IMG/VR virus record: IMGVR_UViG_3300007754_000006
Reading direction: 5' to 3' (one strand)
DNA: 20,000 bases
Source: an uncultured virus (IMG/VR IMGVR_UViG_3300007754_000006)
Lineage: Duplodnaviria; Heunggongvirae; Uroviricota; Caudoviricetes
Positions 2,543-18,773 of this stretch are shown one piece after another; positions within the stretch are counted from its first letter, which is position 1; every line of letters begins with the position of its first letter. A model generated the notes under the pieces. It saw nothing but the letters and a program-made list of their open reading frames with translations. It made no database searches and was not told the DNA's origin. The translations under genes and the position numbers were made by a program.

Positions 2543-2917
2543 CTACAGGTCGAGCTCCCTGCGGAGCTCCCTGATTGCCTTGTTCAGCTTCTTGGGGGCG
2601 TTCTCCTGGGGGGCAAAGAACACGGTTCGCTCGGCTCTATGTCCGAAAGATCTTGGGGTCCGCCAACGCATCGTCAAGTGGATGAAGAAGCCCCCCTTGG
2701 TCTCCCCCGCTTCCCCGTTGAGGTAGTAGCGGGCCCTCTGTCCGTTGGGTCTCCGGACATTGACATAAGACCAGATAGCTCGAGGGACTCGGTGGGAGAG
2801 AACCTGGAAGGAGCTCTGGTAGCCTCCGATGTGCTTCGGGTTGGCTCCGTCTATCCAACGGATGTTCCTCTCCCTGGTGAACTGGATCTCCATCCATTCC
2901 TTGGTGGTCATAGGCAT
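2543..2917 (-). CDS. Hypothetical protein
   Basis: 124-aa ORF with protein-like composition, converging on the 2542 stop. Confidence 0.65.
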   Translation of the reverse strand: MPMTTKEWMEIQFTRERNIRWIDGANPKHIGGYQSSFQVLSHRVPRAIWSYVNVRRPNGQRARYYLNGEAGETKGGFFIHLTMRWRTPRSFGHRAERTVFFAPQENAPKKLNKAIRELRRELDL

Positions 2918-3027
2918 GAGTGGATATCCATCACCACCAAGAGGGAAAGAACCAACACTGCCCCAACCAAGAGGGCCTGGAAGACGGATTCAGGCAGACG
3001 TCGGAAGATAAGGCACTCCGGGACGGA

Positions 3028-3050
3028 GGCACCTCCTGCAGGACTCGAAC
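3028..3050 (-). pseudogene. Orphan tRNA 3' fragment (T-loop plus 3' acceptor strand)
   Basis: Minus strand GTTCGAGT-CCTGC-AGGAGGT-G-CC. AGGAGGT pairs with GCCTCCT of the orphan 5' half at 3885-3891. Confidence 0.6.
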
Positions 3051-3095
3051 ACAGCCCTGGCAGGAGGCGAGCCTGCGCTCTATGAAGGAGAGGAA

Positions 3096-6141: not shown

Positions 6142-6464
6142 CTTTCCTCCGCGTTGGCCTTGAGCGCGCGCCACTTCCGGACCCAGCTCATCCCCAGGTA
6201 GATTACGAGGATTCCACACAAGGCAACCAAGAGAGGCGCATCTCGGGTGAGAACCCCGGCGACGGTGGCTCCAGCGCAGAGGAGGAGCACGCTCATCTTG
6301 TAGCTGAACCAGTAGCGGCTGCCCGGGGAACCGGTGGGCAGGAACACGTAGATGCCCACGACCCCCGTGGAGACAAGGGTCTCCACCTTGAGGTTCAGTC
6401 CCATGAGCTCCCGAAGGAAGGGAACCCCAAGGACGAGAGCTACGACCACCGAGTAGACGGCCAC
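6138..6464 (-). CDS. Small membrane protein (about 4 TM segments)
   Basis: Four hydrophobic stretches; start uncertain (see finding at 6464-6525). Confidence 0.7.
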   Translation of the reverse strand: MAVYSVVVALVLGVPFLRELMGLNLKVETLVSTGVVGIYVFLPTGSPGSRYWFSYKMSVLLLCAGATVAGVLTRDAPLLVALCGILVIYLGMSWVRKWRALKANAEER

Positions 6465-7191: not shown

Positions 7192-7794
7192 CTATATAGG
7201 TGAAGTATTGGCCATCCGGACCTGGGAGTTGTGCGTGAGCTGGAAGCTCCGCTTGGTCCCATCGCGAAGGAAGTGCTGCGCTTCGTTGGCGATGTGCGCT
7301 CCCACGATGGAGTGGAACGGGAGATTCTCCCCGTCCTCGCAGGTCGGTACGTCCCCGGCCGGCTCGGTGTGTGGCGTGAAGTGCTCCGTCCACATGACCC
7401 GGGCGAAGTCCCCAGCTACCGCCAGGCCGCCATGGAGACAGGGGATCCCGTTCTCCGTGCAGAAGCCCTGGATCAGCTGCCGGGCCGCGATGTTGTCCGT
7501 GCAGTCGATGACCAGAGCGGCGCCCGCGAGCAGCTGCTGAACGTTGGCGTCCGTGAGCTTGTGGGGAACGGCCTTGACCCTCAGCCCCCACATGCCCTGG
7601 AGGATCTGGGCCATCGACTGGGCCTTGTTCCGCCGGAGGGCCTGGCGCCCGTAGGCTTGGGCCTGCGTGTTCTTGTTCTCCACGCGATCGAAGTCGATGA
7701 GGACGAGGTCGGCATCCCAGTTCCGCGCGTTCACTGCGACGGGGGATCCGATGGCACCGAGTCCGACGAGGACAACCTTGGGGCGGCGGGTCAT
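7192..7794 (-). CDS. ThiF/MoeB/E1-like adenylyltransferase
   Basis: KVVLVGLGAIGS, LIDFDRVENKN, RNKA, LVIDCTDN, a candidate catalytic Cys in PTCE; GGAG RBS. Confidence 0.9.
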   Translation of the reverse strand: MTRRPKVVLVGLGAIGSPVAVNARNWDADLVLIDFDRVENKNTQAQAYGRQALRRNKAQSMAQILQGMWGLRVKAVPHKLTDANVQQLLAGAALVIDCTDNIAARQLIQGFCTENGIPCLHGGLAVAGDFARVMWTEHFTPHTEPAGDVPTCEDGENLPFHSIVGAHIANEAQHFLRDGTKRSFQLTHNSQVRMANTSPI

Positions 7795-7826
7795 GGGTAA
7801 CTCCGAGGTTCTTCGGATGCCTCGGA

Positions 7827-8513
7827 TTACCGTGTATGACTCCACAACGTTGGGGATTCCAACTCCCGGCCCACTCCTGCTTCCATGAAGTCCTGGGTCA
7901 GGAATGTAGGGGCTGCGATGTTCTTCAGGGGCTCTCCAGGAGCCCAGCACACCTTCACCGCACGACCCCAGCTATCAAGCTCTGCAGATAGCTGTCCAAA
8001 CCCGTGGAAGAACAAGCCGACAAATGGGCGTCTGTTTATCTGGTGGCGCAGACTTCCGTAGGCGGCGACCAGGGCCCAAACCCCCAGGATGTGCCCCGGA
8101 CGGGGATTGTCCCATCGAGGCCCGTCGTCGATGGAGACTGAATGAACGATGACTGTCTCGGCCTCGTTCATGTCGAACCTACAGGTGGCTCGACCGTTCT
8201 CGTAGGGTCGACCGTACATCTGCGTTGCCTTGCGGAACCAGTTGGGGTCTCCGTCCTTCCCCGCGATCTCCTCGCCGTCTACCAAGGTCTTCCAATCACA
8301 TGTGCTGTGATGCGCCTTGAGGTAGTAGGTCCAGGAAATGGATTCCTGATGTGCGGCCTCTCCCCCCTCTCTCAGGGTGGGGTGGGAAAGGGCACTGAGC
8401 TCGAACCGGATGGCCTTGGTGGGAGTGTGCACTCGAGCGACCATTGTCCTCGGGGCGATGCCCACAAAGAAGTCTACAGCCCAATCCACTCGGCGGACAC
8501 ACACGGGGTTCAT
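7827..8513 (-). CDS. Hypothetical protein
   Basis: ATG at 8513 after GAGG; 228 aa. Confidence 0.65.
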   Translation of the reverse strand: MNPVCVRRVDWAVDFFVGIAPRTMVARVHTPTKAIRFELSALSHPTLREGGEAAHQESISWTYYLKAHHSTCDWKTLVDGEEIAGKDGDPNWFRKATQMYGRPYENGRATCRFDMNEAETVIVHSVSIDDGPRWDNPRPGHILGVWALVAAYGSLRHQINRRPFVGLFFHGFGQLSAELDSWGRAVKVCWAPGEPLKNIAAPTFLTQDFMEAGVGRELESPTLWSHTR

Positions 8514-12476: not shown

Positions 12477-12956
12477 TTACCGCGAGCAGAGGACCCTACC
12501 GGACCGAACAGTCTGCGTCCTCGAGGGCTCGATGGCCTGGGCCAGCTGGATGCCGCTCTCGCCCGCGCCGTCGCCGACGAAGATCATGAGAGCGTCCTCG
12601 CCCTCCTGGCGCCTCTCCCACTTCTTCGGACGAGCCTTGGGTAGCCCTACCAGAGGAGGAACCAGATGGCCGTCCTCGTTCCTCTCACGGTCCTCTACGC
12701 GAACGAGGTAGCCCCGCTCGAACACCACGACCACGTTGATCAGGAAATCACAGGAATCGCAGCAGTAGACGCCAAGGTCCTTGAGATACGGGGCGGGGGG
12801 AAGTCCTGGGGCCAGAGAGCCCAAAGGGATCCTCCGGGCCTCGGGTGTGTAGTTCCCGATGAAGAACTTGAACTGGACCTCCGCTCCGTCAGGGGGATGC
12901 GCTGCCCCGCACTCTGGGCAGTCCATCTTCACGTAGGTGGAATCTACCAAACCCAT
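12477..12956 (-). CDS. Zinc-ribbon hypothetical protein
   Basis: CPEC and CDSC pairs; GGAG RBS. Confidence 0.75.
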   Translation of the reverse strand: MGLVDSTYVKMDCPECGAAHPPDGAEVQFKFFIGNYTPEARRIPLGSLAPGLPPAPYLKDLGVYCCDSCDFLINVVVVFERGYLVRVEDRERNEDGHLVPPLVGLPKARPKKWERRQEGEDALMIFVGDGAGESGIQLAQAIEPSRTQTVRSGRVLCSR

Positions 12957-12977
12957 GTCTATCTCCCAACGAAACAG

Positions 12978-13040
12978 GCCGCTCTACAACGGTCCCGTCT
13001 CCTAATGCTCGATTCTTGGAGACGGGACCGTTGGAGCGGC
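12978..13040. repeat. Long inverted repeat (16-bp perfect stem plus 7 bp)
   Basis: CAACGGTCCCGTCTCC (12987-13002) pairs with GGAGACGGGACCGTTG (13018-13033), flanked by GCCGCTC/GAGCGGC. Confidence 0.9.
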
Positions 13041-13051
13041 TTGTGAGAGGG

Positions 13052-13193
13052 TTCCACAACCGGGCGAGTTGGTCAGCGAGGTTACGGCTTGCGCCGGCAC
13101 TCGGATTTGAACCGAGGACATTCCGCTTACGAGGCAGATGATCTATCCAACTGATCTATGCTTGTAGGCTGTACCAGGGGCTCGGTTGTGGAA
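13052..13193 (-). ncRNA. tRNA-Thr(CGU)-like core (13092-13165) with a broken acceptor stem, enclosed by the conserved module
   Basis: Intact D arm (GATC/GATC), anticodon arm TCTGC CT CGT AA GCGGA and T arm CTCGG TTCAAAT CCGAG. Acceptor ACAAGCA/TGCCGGC has 3 mismatches and no CCA. Ends pair TTCCACAACCGAGC/GCCCGGTTGTGGAA. Confidence 0.8.
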
Positions 13194-13198
13194 AATCG

Positions 13199-13429
13199 TC
13201 AGGCTTCGATGACCCAGGGATTCCCGGAGCTTCCTGCTCCGACGGACTCGACCTGGTAGACACCGTTGACATCCCGCGCCTGGTAGTGGGCCTTGCGGAA
13301 CGTGATCCAGAGCCACGCACGCTTCAGCCAGTGGAGCTCTTCCCACCGTTGGCCGCGCACCTCGATCTTGTCGCCGGCCTGGAGGGAAGTTCCGTCTACG
13401 GTATCGGGGATGTCTTCGGAGATGATCAT
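13199..13429 (-). CDS. Hypothetical protein
   Basis: ATG at 13429 after AAGG; 76 aa. Confidence 0.6.
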   Translation of the reverse strand: MIISEDIPDTVDGTSLQAGDKIEVRGQRWEELHWLKRAWLWITFRKAHYQARDVNGVYQVESVGAGSSGNPWVIEA

Positions 13430-13502
13430 TTGACCTTTGGGGTTCCGATTCCCGTTACCGGGTTCACATCTCAATAGCTACGGATTCCGTGGAAGGAAAG
13501 GT

Positions 13503-14222
13503 CTACCTTCTGGTAATGATCGCCACCAAAGCCCCTACAGGGAAGGCCAAAGTGAACAGGATATGTATGTGGAACGCGGCTACCGCAGTGACGGTAGCTA
13601 AGACTCCGATTGCCCCCCAAGACTTGTGATCGGAACCCAGGGTACTGAGGAAGGACAGCTCCAGGAGGTTCGAGTGGGTCATTACAGCACCCGCCGCTCC
13701 CATGAACACGTACAGGGGGAACTCTGACCGAGGACCCTTGTTGCTTCTGCTGAGGCTCTTCGTGATTAGGGTTGCGTCGACCAGAATGAGGGGAATCGTC
13801 ACCAGAACTCCCAGAGAGGCCACCGGGGGGAGGAGAGTCACCGTAGGGACCGCGACCCCCAAGATGAAGAGCTTCCCCCACTCCCCATTCAGAGCCATAA
13901 AGAGAGCCTCTTTTGCCATGGCCAAGGCCATACTTGCCAGGACAGGGATTGAGACCCCTGTGATCAGGACAGCGGCTCCCGGGGGGATGAACATGAATAT
14001 GAAGAAGACAGGAGTGAGGAAAACCAGAGCCACGCCTACGATGAGAACGTGGTGTACTTCTACTTCGTGGTTCTCTACCGCCATGAGCAGACCTACTGCG
14101 GTCGCCCCCATCCACCACAAGGACCCAAGGAACATGAAGATTCCCAGAGACCAGAAGGGGAACTCCAGAGGGGAGAACTCAACCCAAGCTCGCGCGAGAG
14201 CAATCAGGAGTTCCATTCCCAC
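13503..14222 (-). CDS. Polytopic membrane protein
   Basis: Many hydrophobic segments; GGAGG RBS. Confidence 0.75.
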   Translation of the reverse strand: MGMELLIALARAWVEFSPLEFPFWSLGIFMFLGSLWWMGATAVGLLMAVENHEVEVHHVLIVGVALVFLTPVFFIFMFIPPGAAVLITGVSIPVLASMALAMAKEALFMALNGEWGKLFILGVAVPTVTLLPPVASLGVLVTIPLILVDATLITKSLSRSNKGPRSEFPLYVFMGAAGAVMTHSNLLELSFLSTLGSDHKSWGAIGVLATVTAVAAFHIHILFTLAFPVGALVAIITRR

Positions 14223-14244
14223 CTCCGCTGCCTGTTACCTCTCC

Positions 14245-14279
14245 GAAAACGACGAAGCCCCGCTCGGAGGCGGGGCTTC
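14245..14279 (-). terminator. Probable intrinsic terminator of the RNA cluster
   Basis: GAAGCCCCGC CTCCGA GCGGGGCTTC (10-bp stem) followed by GTCGTTTTC, 8 nt after the last CCA. Confidence 0.7.
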
Positions 14280-14287
14280 AAAGTAGA

Positions 14288-14432
14288 TGGCGGGGAAGAG
14301 AGGAGTCGAACCTCTAAGCATGTAGGCTGGTGTCGGGGGCTGGCCTGGACAGGCCAGCGAGGGACTCAGCGAGAAGAGACTTTCGTCCCGGATTAATAGT
14401 CCGGTGGCAGATCCACACTGCCATTCTTCCCC
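14288..14432 (-). ncRNA. 145-nt tRNA-like RNA, anticodon ATT, 6-bp D stem, 72-nt variable region
   Basis: GGGGAAG/CTTCCCC-G-CCA; TGGCAG/CTGCCA; CCGGA CT ATT AA TCCGG; AGAGG TTCGACT CCTCT; insert at 14316-14387. Confidence 0.88.
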
Positions 14433-14520
14433 AGGGGGCGCTCGTCTCTCCGAGCCGTCACGTCTTTTGCTCTCCTTGAAGTGGGAGCAGGGAAGTACGA
14501 CGTTCCCCGGCCAGCCCCCT
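14433..14520 (-). ncRNA. manA-motif-like structured RNA
   Basis: Closing stem AGGGGGC/GCCCCCT, GCCGG, ACGTC/GACGT pseudoknot, CCACTT and GTGACGGCTCGGAGAGACGAGC. The manA resemblance is from memory, not from a covariance-model search. Confidence 0.55.
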
Positions 14521-14685
14521 AATCCACGCTACTGAGTTCGTGGGTAGTCGGGTGGGGCTTCACCTTGAGGGTCCGCTTCTCCGGCGAAACGCGCGGAGCG
14601 GGACAAGAGGACTCAGCCTCTCTTATCTCCCGAAGGAGACGTAGGGTTTGGACGTGCGAGTGGGGGAGCGAGAAACAACGCCTGT

Positions 14686-14761
14686 TGGCGCAAAAAACGG
14701 GAATCGAACCCGCGACATTTTGGGTGTGAACCAAATGCTCTTCCAACTGAGCTATTTTCGC
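14686..14761 (-). tRNA. tRNA-Val(CAC), flanked by the conserved module (full unit 14648-14795)
   Basis: GCGAAAA TA GCTC AGTTGGAA GAGC A TTTGG TT CAC AC CCAAA ATGTC GCGGG TTCGATT CCCGT TTTTTGC G CCA; 76 nt. Confidence 0.88.
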
Positions 14762-14957
14762 AGTGCTTGTAGGCTCCGTCCGGAGGCGCGTCCAAGAAGA
14801 AGGAGAGCACAGGGTTCGATACCTGCTGTTTGCTCACACCCCGAAGGGTGGACCCCCATCGCGCCGAGGGTGGGCACTCTCCATAGTCCCACCAGGTGCT
14901 CCGTGGCGGGTTCAACCATTGAGGAACGAACCGGCTGGAGCTACCTGGGGGATTATA

Positions 14958-15105
14958 TGGTGGGGAAGGAAGGACTCGAACCTTCAAGCGTGTAGGCTGA
15001 TGCCGGAGCTACCTGGGTTGATTCAGATAGCGAGTGGCGCAGCGAGAAGAGTCTTGCGACCCGGTTCCCAAAACCGGTGGCGGATCCATACCGCCATTCT
15101 TCCCC
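14958..15105 (-). ncRNA. 148-nt tRNA-like RNA, anticodon TGG (Pro), 6-bp D stem, 75-nt variable region
   Basis: GGGGAAG/CTTCCCC-A-CCA; TGGCGG/CCGCCA; CCGGT TT TGG GA ACCGG; GAAGG TTCGAGT CCTTC; insert at 14986-15060. Confidence 0.88.
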
Positions 15106-15184
15106 AAAGTGTTTTGAAAGAGCGTCGGGGCGTTTCCCGACTGACAAGAACTAATACCGGTTCTCGTCTGGAAAACCCCTCTTT

Positions 15185-15418
15185 TCAAGAAAGAGCGGCT
15201 TGGACGTAGCTGATGACGTCCCCAACTGTGAACAGGTTCTCGGCGTCCTCGTCCGAGATCTGGATCTTGAACTCGGTCTCGAGATTGATCGCCAGGTCAA
15301 CTCGGTCCAGGCTGTCCGCTCCAAGATCATCCACGAGATCCGCCCCTGGGGCTGCCTCCTCGGGGGCGACTCGGAGCAGGTGGGTGATCAGCTCTACGAC
15401 GCGGGACTCAATCTTCAC
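15185..15418 (-). CDS. acpP: Acyl carrier protein
   Basis: GTG at 15418 after GAGGGG; DDLGADSLD phosphopantetheine site, LETEFKIQISDEDAE, TVGDVISYV. Confidence 0.93.
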   Translation of the reverse strand: MKIESRVVELITHLLRVAPEEAAPGADLVDDLGADSLDRVDLAINLETEFKIQISDEDAENLFTVGDVISYVQAALS

Positions 15419-18059: not shown

Positions 18060-18773
18060 CTACTGATTTTCGAAGCGTGGGTCCTTGGGTCCCTCTACCT
18101 CAGTGACCTCGATGCCTTGGTCCGTCAGGTAGTCGGCTCCATCCTTCCCGCCCAGATAACCGTCGCCGACCACGAACACCCGGGAGATCCCCGCGTGGTG
18201 TATCAGCTTGGCGCACATCATACAGGGCTCGGCCAAGACGATAAGCCAAGCACCCGTGGTCTTTATCCCCCCTGCCGCTGCGTTGCAGATGACGTTCATC
18301 TCGGCGTGGTGGCAGCCACGTTCCATCCGGGTTCCGGACTCGATGGGCGGGTGCTGTGCCACGAACTCCTGGGCCCACTCCTCCGCCTTCCTCTTGGCGT
18401 GGCCTGGCTCGAGCTTCTCGGTGATGTTGTGGAGGCTTTCCCAGTGGAGAGCCTCGCTATCCGGTACTCCCTCTGGCGACTTCGGGAACACACCCATCCC
18501 CTTTACGCTGTGCGTTCCTCCTCCTCGGAGAGGAGGGTAGGTCCAGGAAACCCGGATCTCGAGGTCGTCCATTGTGACCCCGTCCCGCTCACACCAGAAA
18601 CCTCGACAGAGCGTTCCATTGGCTCCCCGAGGACCTCCGTTGTACCCGTCGGCGAGGATCACGTTCCTCTTGGGATCCAGGAGGAGGGCTGCCAGCTTGC
18701 GACGGGGGCAATGAGAGGCGCCAGCCAAGGCCAGGCACTGCTGTATCCGGATCTCGATATGTCGTTGTTTCAT
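18060..18773 (-). CDS. dCMP deaminase with an internal insertion
   Basis: SHCPRR, GYNG, HAEMN, PCMMCAKLI. Confidence 0.93.
   Translation of the reverse strand: MKQRHIEIRIQQCLALAGASHCPRRKLAALLLDPKRNVILADGYNGGPRGANGTLCRGFWCERDGVTMDDLEIRVSWTYPPLRGGGTHSVKGMGVFPKSPEGVPDSEALHWESLHNITEKLEPGHAKRKAEEWAQEFVAQHPPIESGTRMERGCHHAEMNVICNAAAGGIKTTGAWLIVLAEPCMMCAKLIHHAGISRVFVVGDGYLGGKDGADYLTDQGIEVTEVEGPKDPRFENQ

Follow-up and report, generated by a model that had tools for sequence, protein, structure and literature searches.

What does a tRNA-shaped gene do with 72 nt between its anticodon arm and its T arm? The question is raised by a 20,000-nucleotide stretch of DNA from an uncultured virus of the Caudoviricetes (IMG/VR record IMGVR_UViG_3300007754_000006; the whole stretch is called the window below), whose minus strand carries at 14288-14432 a 145-nt tRNA-like gene with an ATT anticodon, called copy 1 here. 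An earlier, sequence-only reading had taken this gene either for a non-translating mimic or for a tRNA-Asn whose anticodon escapes anticodon nucleases and whose insert must be removed or tolerated. We report that the giant arm belongs to an RNA element that is conserved among large phages and had not been annotated before. The element is most likely a cut-and-join signal for disrupted tRNA genes, and the insert of copy 1 a splicing-type processing signal, cut out and rejoined, in an Asn-type tRNA gene; we put the probability of this reading at roughly 0.55. The AUU anticodon is real at the DNA level and derived.

Copy 1 and its insert

Every feature that the sequence-only reading had listed for copy 1, namely the acceptor stem, G73-CCA, the T arm, the 6-bp D stem, the 72-nt region and the ATT anticodon, is present on the minus strand. 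The gene folds as a cloverleaf with a canonical T arm at -61.6 kcal/mol, and none of 200 shuffled sequences folded equally well. Its parts are as follows.

14288-14432, minus: whole tRNA-like gene, copy 1; fold z = -4.14, identical in four assemblies
14426-14432, minus: 5' strand of the acceptor stem, GGGGAAG, pairing 7/7 with 14292-14298
14405-14423, minus: D arm, with a 6-bp stem UGGCAG/CUGCCA and a 7-nt loop UGUGGAU that holds GG
14388-14404, minus: anticodon arm CCGGA-CUAUUAA-UCCGG, with A34, U35 and U36 at 14397, 14396 and 14395
14378-14387, minus: hairpin GAC-GAAA-GUC, predicted to be retained as a short class-II-like variable arm
14320-14377, minus: predicted 58-nt intervening element, its boundaries inferred from the 7/helix/6 geometry of the permuted genes described below
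14377-14371, minus: 7-nt G-poor flank UCUUCUC, part of the predicted intervening element
14326-14370, minus: module arm in three tiers, with GCUG/CAGC, a 1x2 loop, GUC/GAC, an internal loop of CCUC facing CCCC, and a hairpin
within 14326-14370, minus: capping hairpin of the module, GCUGGCCU-GUCC-AGGCCAGC, the upper hairpin that covaries in the family
14361-14359, minus: box A, CUC, in the internal loop of the module arm
14325-14320, minus: 6-nt flank CUACAU, part of the predicted intervening element
14318-14325, minus: box B, CUACAUGC (family consensus CUACAAGC, with invariant CTACA-GC)
14299-14315, minus: T arm AGAGG-UUCGACU-CCUCU
14288-14298, minus: 3' strand of the acceptor stem, CUUCCCC, with G73 and CCA at 14291-14288
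14253-14280, minus: terminator-like hairpin of 11 pairs with a T-rich tail, 7 nt past the CCA

To the seven acceptor pairs (GGGGAAG/CUUCCCC) the minimum free energy (MFE) structure adds an eighth, A8-U, giving an 8/4 division between acceptor and T stems; a 7/5 division is equally compatible, and other family members have U8 and a plain 7/5 branch. The 72-nt stretch that separates the anticodon arm from the T arm (14387-14316) opens with the GAC-GAAA-GUC hairpin, which covaries in paralogues (GUC-GCAA-GAC and GAC-UAAC-GUC). Natural class II variable arms are about 10-25 nt long; the region in copy 1 is not a single hairpin of that size and comprises two separate structured parts. At 145 nt the gene also lies outside class I dimensions (about 76 nt, with a 4-5 nt variable loop). 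It has the Asn-type G73 and CCA end, U33 and A37. Gene finders are poorly suited to such a molecule: ARAGORN made no call for the unspliced gene, and the Rfam tRNA model gave it 14.1 bits, under the gathering score of 29. Three family members exceed that cut-off despite their inserts (46.2, 43.5 and 42.5 bits), and a further insert-bearing relative reaches 33.7 bits on the tRNA-Sec model, under the cut-off of that model.

The sequence-only reading had allowed that GTT might be the true anticodon and ATT an error. Contigs from four of four runs, belonging to two studies, all read ATT, with 0 differing letters and 0 gaps over the 1001 bases of 14200-15200; the runs are marine and seawater metagenomes, and the source sample is possibly among them. 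Since the letters are identical in four assemblies, ATT is not an error of one assembly.

Pattern scans assembled at least 40 relatives, 22 viral and 18 metagenomic, all with the same insert, so copy 1 does not stand alone. The viral copies come from nine IMG/VR records of 10 to 529 kb, including two complete genomes of 436 and 529 kb. One viral scan returned 64 loci, of which 11 were judged true by eye (16 copies) and one was an ordinary tRNA, the remainder being apparent chance matches in coding sequence. A metagenome scan returned at least 98 stretches; 80 loci were inspected and the rest screened with ARAGORN, which added two members (L205 and L210). ARAGORN's intron mode forced introns into the anticodon loop and was useful only for L234, L205 and L210. 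In five large genomes the pattern CTACANGC-N2-12-GGTTCRA matched 11 times, always on one strand per genome, and the reversed pattern 0 times. The word CCTACANGC occurs nine times forward and 0 times reverse in record G002, and 0 times forward and four times reverse in G004.

The insert has a constant order: seven G-poor nucleotides, a helix in two or three tiers whose internal loop carries CUC, and then box B. Constrained MFE folding gave the same tiered arm in 34 of the 40 members, with 0-1 nt separating its end from box B. The basal helix, 2-8 bp long, is followed by a small asymmetric loop and a second helix of 2-5 bp; the internal loop above is free of G, its 5' side ending in CUC, and the capping hairpin is often of GNRA or UNCG type. 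The helices are diverse in sequence (at least 18 outer and at least 20 middle helices) and retain their pairing. In the upper hairpin, RNAalifold on 27 of 32 arms, the five longest being left out, found compensatory changes at 6/6 predicted pairs. Because the helices contain G-U pairs, the tRNA-sense strand is the folding strand. The box B core CTACA-GC is invariant, many members having been located with patterns that contain it. Full-gene MAFFT alignments were too poor in the 5' half, so no covariance model was built, and the structure statistics come from per-sequence folds together with the RNAalifold analysis. The alignments held no other invariant stretch that could serve as an intramolecular pairing partner for box B.

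Known RNA families did not account for the module. At gathering scores Rfam found only three ordinary tRNAs in the whole window; with E up to 10 all its matches in 14150-14700 were at chance level, and with E up to 1 the giant genes at five related loci were matched only by tRNA and tRNA-Sec-like models. Self-cleaving ribozymes of the hammerhead, HDV-like, twister, pistol and hatchet types had no Rfam match in 14150-14700 or at the five related loci. A likeness of CCUCGCUGG to HDV-like ribozymes was dropped, since the module is nested, has no pseudoknot topology and gave no Rfam match, and hammerhead core motifs, judged by eye, are not conserved among copies. A promoter at box B was rejected because the spacing from box A varies from about 10 to 35 nt and the intervening helices covary; 12900-15400 held no sigma-70-like sites, and box B may coincide with a phage-specific promoter. 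The likeness of the reverse strand to integron attC sites is superficial only, and in literature text the box B sequence matched only unrelated primers and siRNAs.

Group I introns occur in bacterial and phage genes, including tRNA anticodon loops. The present inserts resemble them as intervening RNA in tRNA genes of bacteria with an association to homing endonucleases. Unlike group I introns of tRNA genes, which occupy the anticodon loop, they sit mostly in the variable region and have no Rfam match; with an arm of 47-60 nt and about 58 nt in all they are far too short for the conserved P3-P9 core of a group I intron, which usually exceeds 200 nt.

The element at permuted and interrupted tRNA genes

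On the prevailing view, tRNA genes run uninterrupted in bacteria and in their viruses, self-splicing group I introns aside, whereas ectopic introns and permuted tRNA genes count as characteristic of archaea and of a few algae, where they go with the bulge-helix-bulge (BHB) endonuclease. Three genes in the present family depart from this picture. The tRNA-Thr(CGU) of the window, a tRNA-Met(CAU) in record G007 and a tRNA-Phe(GAA) in G002 are circularly permuted, and each is flanked by the two halves of the module. The tRNA-Thr gene lies 1.1 kb from copy 1. As annotated (13091-13165) its acceptor pairs at only 4/7 positions and box B directly abuts its D arm. Its parts, in the order of the RNA, are these.

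13162-13206, minus: leader, with the 3' module half CCACAACCGAG-CCCC-UGG-UA-CAGC, then CUACAA
13167-13162, minus: CUACAA of box B, the end of the leader
13092-13161, minus: nt 5-73 of the tRNA, first on the RNA; they start with GCA, the end of box B
13085-13088, minus: nt 1-4 of the tRNA (GCCG), 3 nt (CAA) past the discriminator
13040-13084, minus: trailer, with UAACCUC (7 nt), then the 5' module half GCUG-A-CCA-ACUC-GCCCGGUUGUGG

When the pieces are rejoined, GCCG+GCA pairs 7/7 with UGCCGGC and a perfect 74-nt cloverleaf results. The same holds for the acceptors of the other two genes, whose nt 1-4 lie 11 nt (Met) and 5 nt (Phe) past the discriminator: all three rejoined acceptors pair 7/7, with different exon sequences (GCCG, GCGG and GAGA, each followed by the GCA of box B as nt 5-7). 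ARAGORN called all three rejoined genes, the first as tRNA-Thr. In every case the trailer opens with exactly seven unpaired nucleotides and the leader closes with CUACAA. The leader/trailer duplexes of Thr, Met and Phe have energies of -33.7, -26.3 and -28.1 kcal/mol (z about -5.9, -5.0 and -5.5), 0 of 500 shuffles being equally good in each case, and the cognate pairs were the best in a 3x3 cross table. Because the exons are permuted, a tRNA can be obtained from these genes only by cutting the RNA at the module and joining the ends. Since the same element flanks these genes and interrupts copy 1, we think it most likely that the insert marks a cut-and-rejoin site.

The element occurs in further settings. 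In G007 a 152-nt gene (L234:1456-1607, minus) becomes a perfect canonical 76-nt tRNA(CAU) once a 76-nt module-bearing insert is deleted from the 3' side of its anticodon loop, the boundary being ambiguous by 2 nt (an AA repeat). Short forms lie in spacers between tRNA genes, and one box B stands in the leader of an intact, ordinary tRNA-Val(CAC) (14686-14761).

14765-14772, minus: box B CUACAAGC, ending 3 nt ahead of tRNA-Val(CAC)

One signal would thus serve four kinds of site. It interrupts tRNA genes, in most cases within the variable region and in one case within the anticodon loop; it flanks permuted genes in two halves; it lies in short form in tRNA spacers; and it stands in the tRNA-Val leader. 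We propose that about 58 nt of an intervening sequence of an undescribed class interrupt the variable region of copy 1, that the fold of the module would hold the two exon ends side by side and mark the single-stranded flanks for cleavage, and that ligation would follow, possibly by an RtcB-type enzyme of phage or host. A different structure would thereby do the job that the BHB motif does in archaea and algae. The predicted product of copy 1 is an 87-nt tRNA with a short GAAA-capped variable hairpin, AUU, G73 and CCA.

Several observations are consistent with this proposal. Copy 1 shares the 7/6 geometry of the permuted genes; its 5' cut would fall exactly at the end of the first hairpin, and after CUACAU come GCUU and then the T stem. 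In-silico excision by the 7/6 rule gave full-length ARAGORN calls for 27 of the 40 members, vs 0 of 40 before, a count to be read with the caution that any arm-shortening deletion might help ARAGORN. Excised copy 1 is called 'tRNA-Asn(att)', and its variable region of 14 nt with a 3-bp stem would have class II size. That predicted region, GACGAAAGUCGCUU, resembles the GAGUGAAAGCUCUAU of an ordinary 85-nt tRNA-Asn(GUU) in G001, the longer record that matches the window (L008:5895-5979, minus), which has a class-II-like extra hairpin GAG-UGAAAG-CUC. The idea that the 72 nt form a permanent giant variable arm is not supported. The suggestion in the sequence-only reading that the insert must be removed gains good indirect backing, both from the permuted genes that require cutting and joining and from the normal-sized tRNAs that excision yields.

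The Asn ancestry suggested earlier for copy 1 has also held up. The loop CUGUUAA occurs in five relatives, one of them with the acceptor GGGGAAG of copy 1, and copy 1, which keeps G73, differs from this loop only by G34 to A. The best reading of the AUU anticodon is therefore that a gene of the Asn type has undergone a G34-to-A change.

Ligase genes occur in part of the family. Record G005 encodes a full-length RtcB (415.8 bits), and partial matches are found in G006 (L264, G006:116020-116316; the C-terminal 89 profile positions) and G007 (L265, G007:239009-239140; the N-terminal 46). These partial genes may be split, interrupted or degraded.

The closest functional parallel is the BHB-dependent disruption of tRNA genes, with ectopic introns, split genes and circularly permuted genes in Archaea and in algae such as Cyanidioschyzon merolae (PMC3978253, PMC3728597 and PMC3218864, in the text available of each). 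As in those systems, one signal here serves introns at several positions and permuted genes, the leader and trailer pair and so rebuild the signal, the predicted chemistry is an endonuclease with an RtcB-type ligase, and the permuted forms need RNase P and RNase Z to open their joined acceptor end. There are also differences. The BHB motif has two 3-nt bulges and a 4-bp helix, whereas the module, judged by eye, sets 7-nt and 6-nt strands beside a helix of 3-8 bp, and no BHB motif could be drawn by eye at any junction, including L234. The module has conserved boxes CUC and CUACAAGC, its carriers resemble phages of bacteria, the break falls inside the acceptor stem at nt 4/5, and no EndA was found in five genomes.

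Among phages, Devoto et al. (2019) described 'enigmatic introns' in tRNAs of Lak megaphages and stated that no introns of phage tRNAs had been reported until then (PMC6784885). Both cases concern large phages with oversized tRNA genes that are normalised by removing a non-group I insert. Unlike the module, the inserts of the Lak phages, whose genomes have 26% G+C, were assigned to the anticodon loop by a search with eukaryote settings; the available text of the paper describes no shared structural motif, variable-region inserts or permuted genes, and CTACAAGC has 0 occurrences in those of its supplementary files that were available. The 93-nt 'intron' of the Lak tRNA-Tyr (Table S6 of the same source, as available) holds a T-loop-like ggttcgaatcc, which hints at hidden tRNA parts. 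HDV-like theta ribozymes lie beside phage tRNAs and have been proposed to process tRNA ends (PMC10879173, available text). They share with the module that they are small structured RNAs of phage tRNA clusters; as that text describes them, they stand 3' of tRNAs and form an HDV-like double pseudoknot, whereas the module folds as a simple nested arm, and no ribozyme family of Rfam matches it. tRNAs with 8/4 or 9/3 branches (tRNA-Sec and allo-tRNAs) are known, and 8/4 tRNAs have been reported in phages (PMC5389517, available sections). The giant genes resemble class II tRNAs, tRNA-Sec and allo-tRNAs, as described in those sections, in a long extra arm, G73, varied anticodons and a possible 8/4 branch, many members also having a long D stem with a short loop. 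They differ from class II in the 72-nt length, and the extra length is one conserved module that also occurs outside tRNA frames.

Literature searches on permuted tRNAs of phages and on tRNA introns of jumbo phages and megaphages turned up no paper on permuted tRNA genes in bacteriophages, and tRNA splicing of the kind proposed here has most likely not been described for viruses of bacteria. If the reading is right, disrupted tRNA genes arose independently, and a new RNA endonuclease or ribozyme is to be expected. It would explain some of the oversized tRNA-like genes of huge phages that gene finders miss (none of the 40 was called before excision), provide a simple rule for re-annotating them, and make the nature of the 'enigmatic' megaphage tRNA introns testable. 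It would also raise the question of whether tRNAs are encoded in pieces so as to hide or regulate them, for example with respect to host tRNA-cleaving defences.

Points against excision and the competing readings

A number of results weigh against this proposal, beginning with the enzymes. EndA (PF01974) was matched in 0 of five large genomes of the family, while the control was matched in four archaea, and no endonuclease candidate for the cleavage was found. RtcB is missing from G008 and G010, and from the fragmentary records G001-G004 and G009, which include the window's own. The runs listed with this stretch include no RNA run, so excision, cut sites and ligation are all inferred. The metagenomic members were selected by patterns with CTCG, CTACANGC and the T loop and filtered for 7/7 acceptor pairs, so the conservation of those features is partly built in; among the unfiltered viral copies the acceptor stem is intact in 21 of 22. 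After excision 13 of the 40 members still receive no tRNA call from ARAGORN. The tRNA(CAU) gene L234 needs 15-nt flanks on both sides, which misfits the 7/6 rule. In the complete 392-kb phage genome G010, a tRNA-Trp(CCA) is permuted at the anticodon loop, in the order 3' half, CCUGGA, 5' half, with only box-like motifs and a different geometry.

L262 (G010:117000-123000), offsets 2555-2760, reverse strand: permuted tRNA-Trp of G010

After a spacer with box-like motifs this genome has a second unit of the form 3' half, loop, 5' half (ACUCCCC-U-GUUUGU-GGGGAGU). As a further permuted tRNA gene, the locus also speaks for cutting and joining.

The anticodon loops are a further difficulty. The loop CUAUUAA of copy 1 has A34, where the GUU of bacterial tRNA-Asn has a G34 that is later converted to queuosine. 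Across the family only 18 of 40 loops are fully canonical and 22 are not; U33 is present in 23, and three loops have 8 nt, one of which, AAGGAAAA, is kept in two phages. Among the 37 seven-nucleotide loops, 15 belong to the G/A-U-N class (Asn, Tyr, His, Asp); the five GUU loops are all canonical, and all five GUA loops have a residue other than U at position 33. Seven members have A34, in AUU, AUG (two), AUC, AUA, AAG and ACC. The discriminators do not track the anticodons or identity rules, and apparent orthologues switch anticodon (UUG in copy 3, a third paralogue, and UUU in L076). For copy 1 itself, the codon AAU is rare in the phage (35 AAT vs 158 AAC in 26 long open reading frames) and the ordinary tRNA-Asn(GUU) is present alongside. 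Taken together, these oddities of the loops are easier to reconcile with RNAs that do not decode than with introns of functioning tRNAs. Even if the inserts are excised, then, many of the products may not be ordinary decoders, and a scaffold or decoy is a serious rival.

According to that rival, which we consider doubtful overall, the mature 145-nt RNA is a permanent tRNA-shaped scaffold that displays the module to a protein or RNA, its loop not decoding and perhaps acting as a nuclease decoy, while the tRNA frame supplies RNase P and RNase Z processing, CCA addition and stability. It would account for the 22 of 40 members that have no canonical loop beside acceptors that are kept, for the five GUA loops and the odd 8-nt loop, and for A34 in place of G34 in the AUU, the two AUG, the AUC and the AUA members; an internal loop and a box B that are conserved with no intramolecular partner are also what a binding site would show. 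A precedent exists in T4 species 1 RNA (rnaC, NC_000866), a stable RNA of 139 nt that is similar in size and has a T arm, lies with species 2 (rnaD) at the end of a tRNA cluster with the GIY-YIG gene segB, and has no function assigned in the annotation. Unlike the module genes, it has no full cloverleaf, box A, box B or module. What a scaffold leaves unexplained is the split element around permuted genes whose exons rejoin perfectly, the canonical tRNA(CAU) interrupted in its anticodon loop, the presence of the element in spacers and ahead of an intact tRNA-Val, within its leader, and the flawless Asn loops of all five GUU-type members.

The settings outside tRNA frames could instead suggest that the element is a cleavage signal only, which cuts free the tRNAs of a polycistronic transcript with no ligation; within a tRNA frame it would produce a split tRNA, its pieces held together by the acceptor stem, or inactivate the gene. 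The short forms between tRNA genes and 3 nt upstream of tRNA-Val are in keeping with this, as are the tRNA genes with a box A-like motif after them and box B before them, which occur solely within these clusters, and the several genomes that have no ligase match. The acceptor break at nt 4/5 needs a join to give a chargeable tRNA, however, and at least one genome of the family encodes RtcB, and we regard cleavage with no joining as improbable.

It is more improbable still that the insert is debris of mobile DNA, a repeat spread by homing endonucleases that leaves giant and permuted genes non-functional. GIY-YIG genes do lie beside copies in G001 (copy 3), G002, G004 and G007, and in the G004 copy at 6299 a T-loop segment is duplicated and the acceptor is broken. 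Against this, the helices covary, and their G-U pairs would be A-C mismatches on the other strand; the motif is strand-specific, the acceptors are kept in all but one of the unfiltered copies, and three phages share the permuted layout, their exons differing in a compensatory way.

Hardly credible, lastly, is a working giant-armed decoder, in which AsnRS, or an enzyme able to read long arms, charges the unspliced 145-nt RNA, which then decodes AAU with its arm tolerated. Natural class II arms come nowhere near 72 nt, A34 is not an Asn identity base under the familiar identity rules, the rare AAU codon is already read by GUU, which the ordinary tRNA-Asn provides, and the family evidence for excision applies to copy 1 too. 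In its favour are the intact acceptor, G73-CCA, T arm, D-loop GG, U33 and A37, and the tolerance of long arms and hairpin tags in engineered tRNAs (PMC7590224, in the text available).

Returning to excision and rejoining, a wider version of that proposal can be put forward only tentatively, at somewhat less than even odds. Large phages would encode their own tRNA splicing, neither group I nor BHB, in which a compact module of CUC, basal helix and CUACAAGC directs cutting and rejoining and permits introns in the variable region and the anticodon loop as well as permuted genes, some of them broken within the acceptor stem; the catalyst would be an undiscovered phage endonuclease acting with RtcB, or the module itself, and the A34 and non-U33 loops would be deliberate. 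Such loops could make phage tRNAs unrecognisable to host anticodon nucleases or to Tgt. In the GUN-type loops of the family A34 or a base other than U at position 33 is frequent, and the escape from anticodon nucleases suggested by the sequence-only reading is a lead only. A link of the skewed loops to queuosine insertion or to anticodon nucleases is possible.

Genome setting

The window matches G001, a 56.6-kb IMG/VR record of 60% G+C that CheckV rates as 31% complete, at 99.9% identity; about 329 bases at G001:15329-15657 are absent from the window at about 12518-12531 (an indel). A second record, G003, overlaps and extends G001. The latter carries 19 ordinary tRNA genes on one strand, including Asn(GUU), Pro(UGG) and Gln(UUG), together with many GIY-YIG and HNH genes, an RNA-repair-type HAD domain, a ThiF-like gene and a dCMP deaminase. 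The window's only deaminase-like open reading frame (18063-18773, minus) matches dCMP deaminase families, and a TadA-like A34-to-I editor was rejected on this ground. Signs of phages of bacteria in the carriers are terminator-like hairpins, a peptidoglycan-binding domain, and Seg-like GIY-YIG and HNH genes. Copy 1 has one paralogue in the window, and copy 3, with the loop AUUUGGA, lies outside it in G001.

14958-15105, minus: copy 2, 148 nt, with the same body and insert, loop UUUGGGA (UGG) and A73-CCA

Further tRNA-shaped elements accompany these genes. Between copy 2 and tRNA-Val, at about 14795-14883 of the window (minus), an 89-nt element combines an acceptor-like stem of 7 bp (GGAGAGU/GCUCUCC) with a T-arm-like hairpin, whose loop is UAUCGAA, and an inner UUCG-capped hairpin. 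It has neither discriminator nor CCA, and after it come UUCUUCU (7 nt), a hairpin and box B. Minihelix-like elements of acceptor and T arm lie at about 3005-3095 of the window (minus) and at about 1635-1700 of L003 (minus), one directly after tRNA-Arg(UCU) and one directly before copy 3, ending in CAGAGGC-G-CCA.

The conserved neighbours differ between subgroups. In that of the window they are GIY-YIG endonucleases: Seg-like paralogues, up to 54% identical, adjoin giant tRNA genes in four records (L040 of G004, L003 of G001 with copy 3, L105 of G007 and L032 of G002), and the damaged giant gene at about 6299 of G004 is one of those beside such a gene. In four megaphage records a ThiF/MoeB-like E1 gene (60-64% mutual identity) lies directly upstream of giant tRNA genes; it is also present in the window and in G002. 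In the megaphage subgroup this neighbour fell short of every equivalog cut-off, and nothing tied it to the RNA. The ThiF/MoeB-like genes are located as follows.

L115:680-1273, plus
L109:1-741, plus
L108:1888-2532, minus
window 7195-7950, minus
L033:18436-19005, plus

An 88-aa open reading frame ahead of the ThiF/MoeB-like gene is conserved in G008. Very long open reading frames of 3631 aa (L038:2666-13558, minus, in G003) and 3661 aa (L031:1731-12713, plus, in G002) have no Pfam match.

Other long-armed tRNA genes also occur. The complete 171-kb phage G012 and its relatives (L241, L244 and L256) have a giant gene of another sort, tRNA-Leu-like and low in G+C, whose insert measures about 110 nt and in which CUACAAGC also stands shortly ahead of the T arm. 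A tRNA-Pro(UGG) in a 119-kb marine phage contig (L252 and L255) has an 8-bp extra arm with the 5' strand CCUACAAG. Box-B-like words in ordinary long arms may be due to chance, 21 being observed vs roughly 22 expected. G002 also contains an 89-nt tRNA-Phe, an 87-nt tRNA-Pro and a 98-nt call with a four-letter anticodon.

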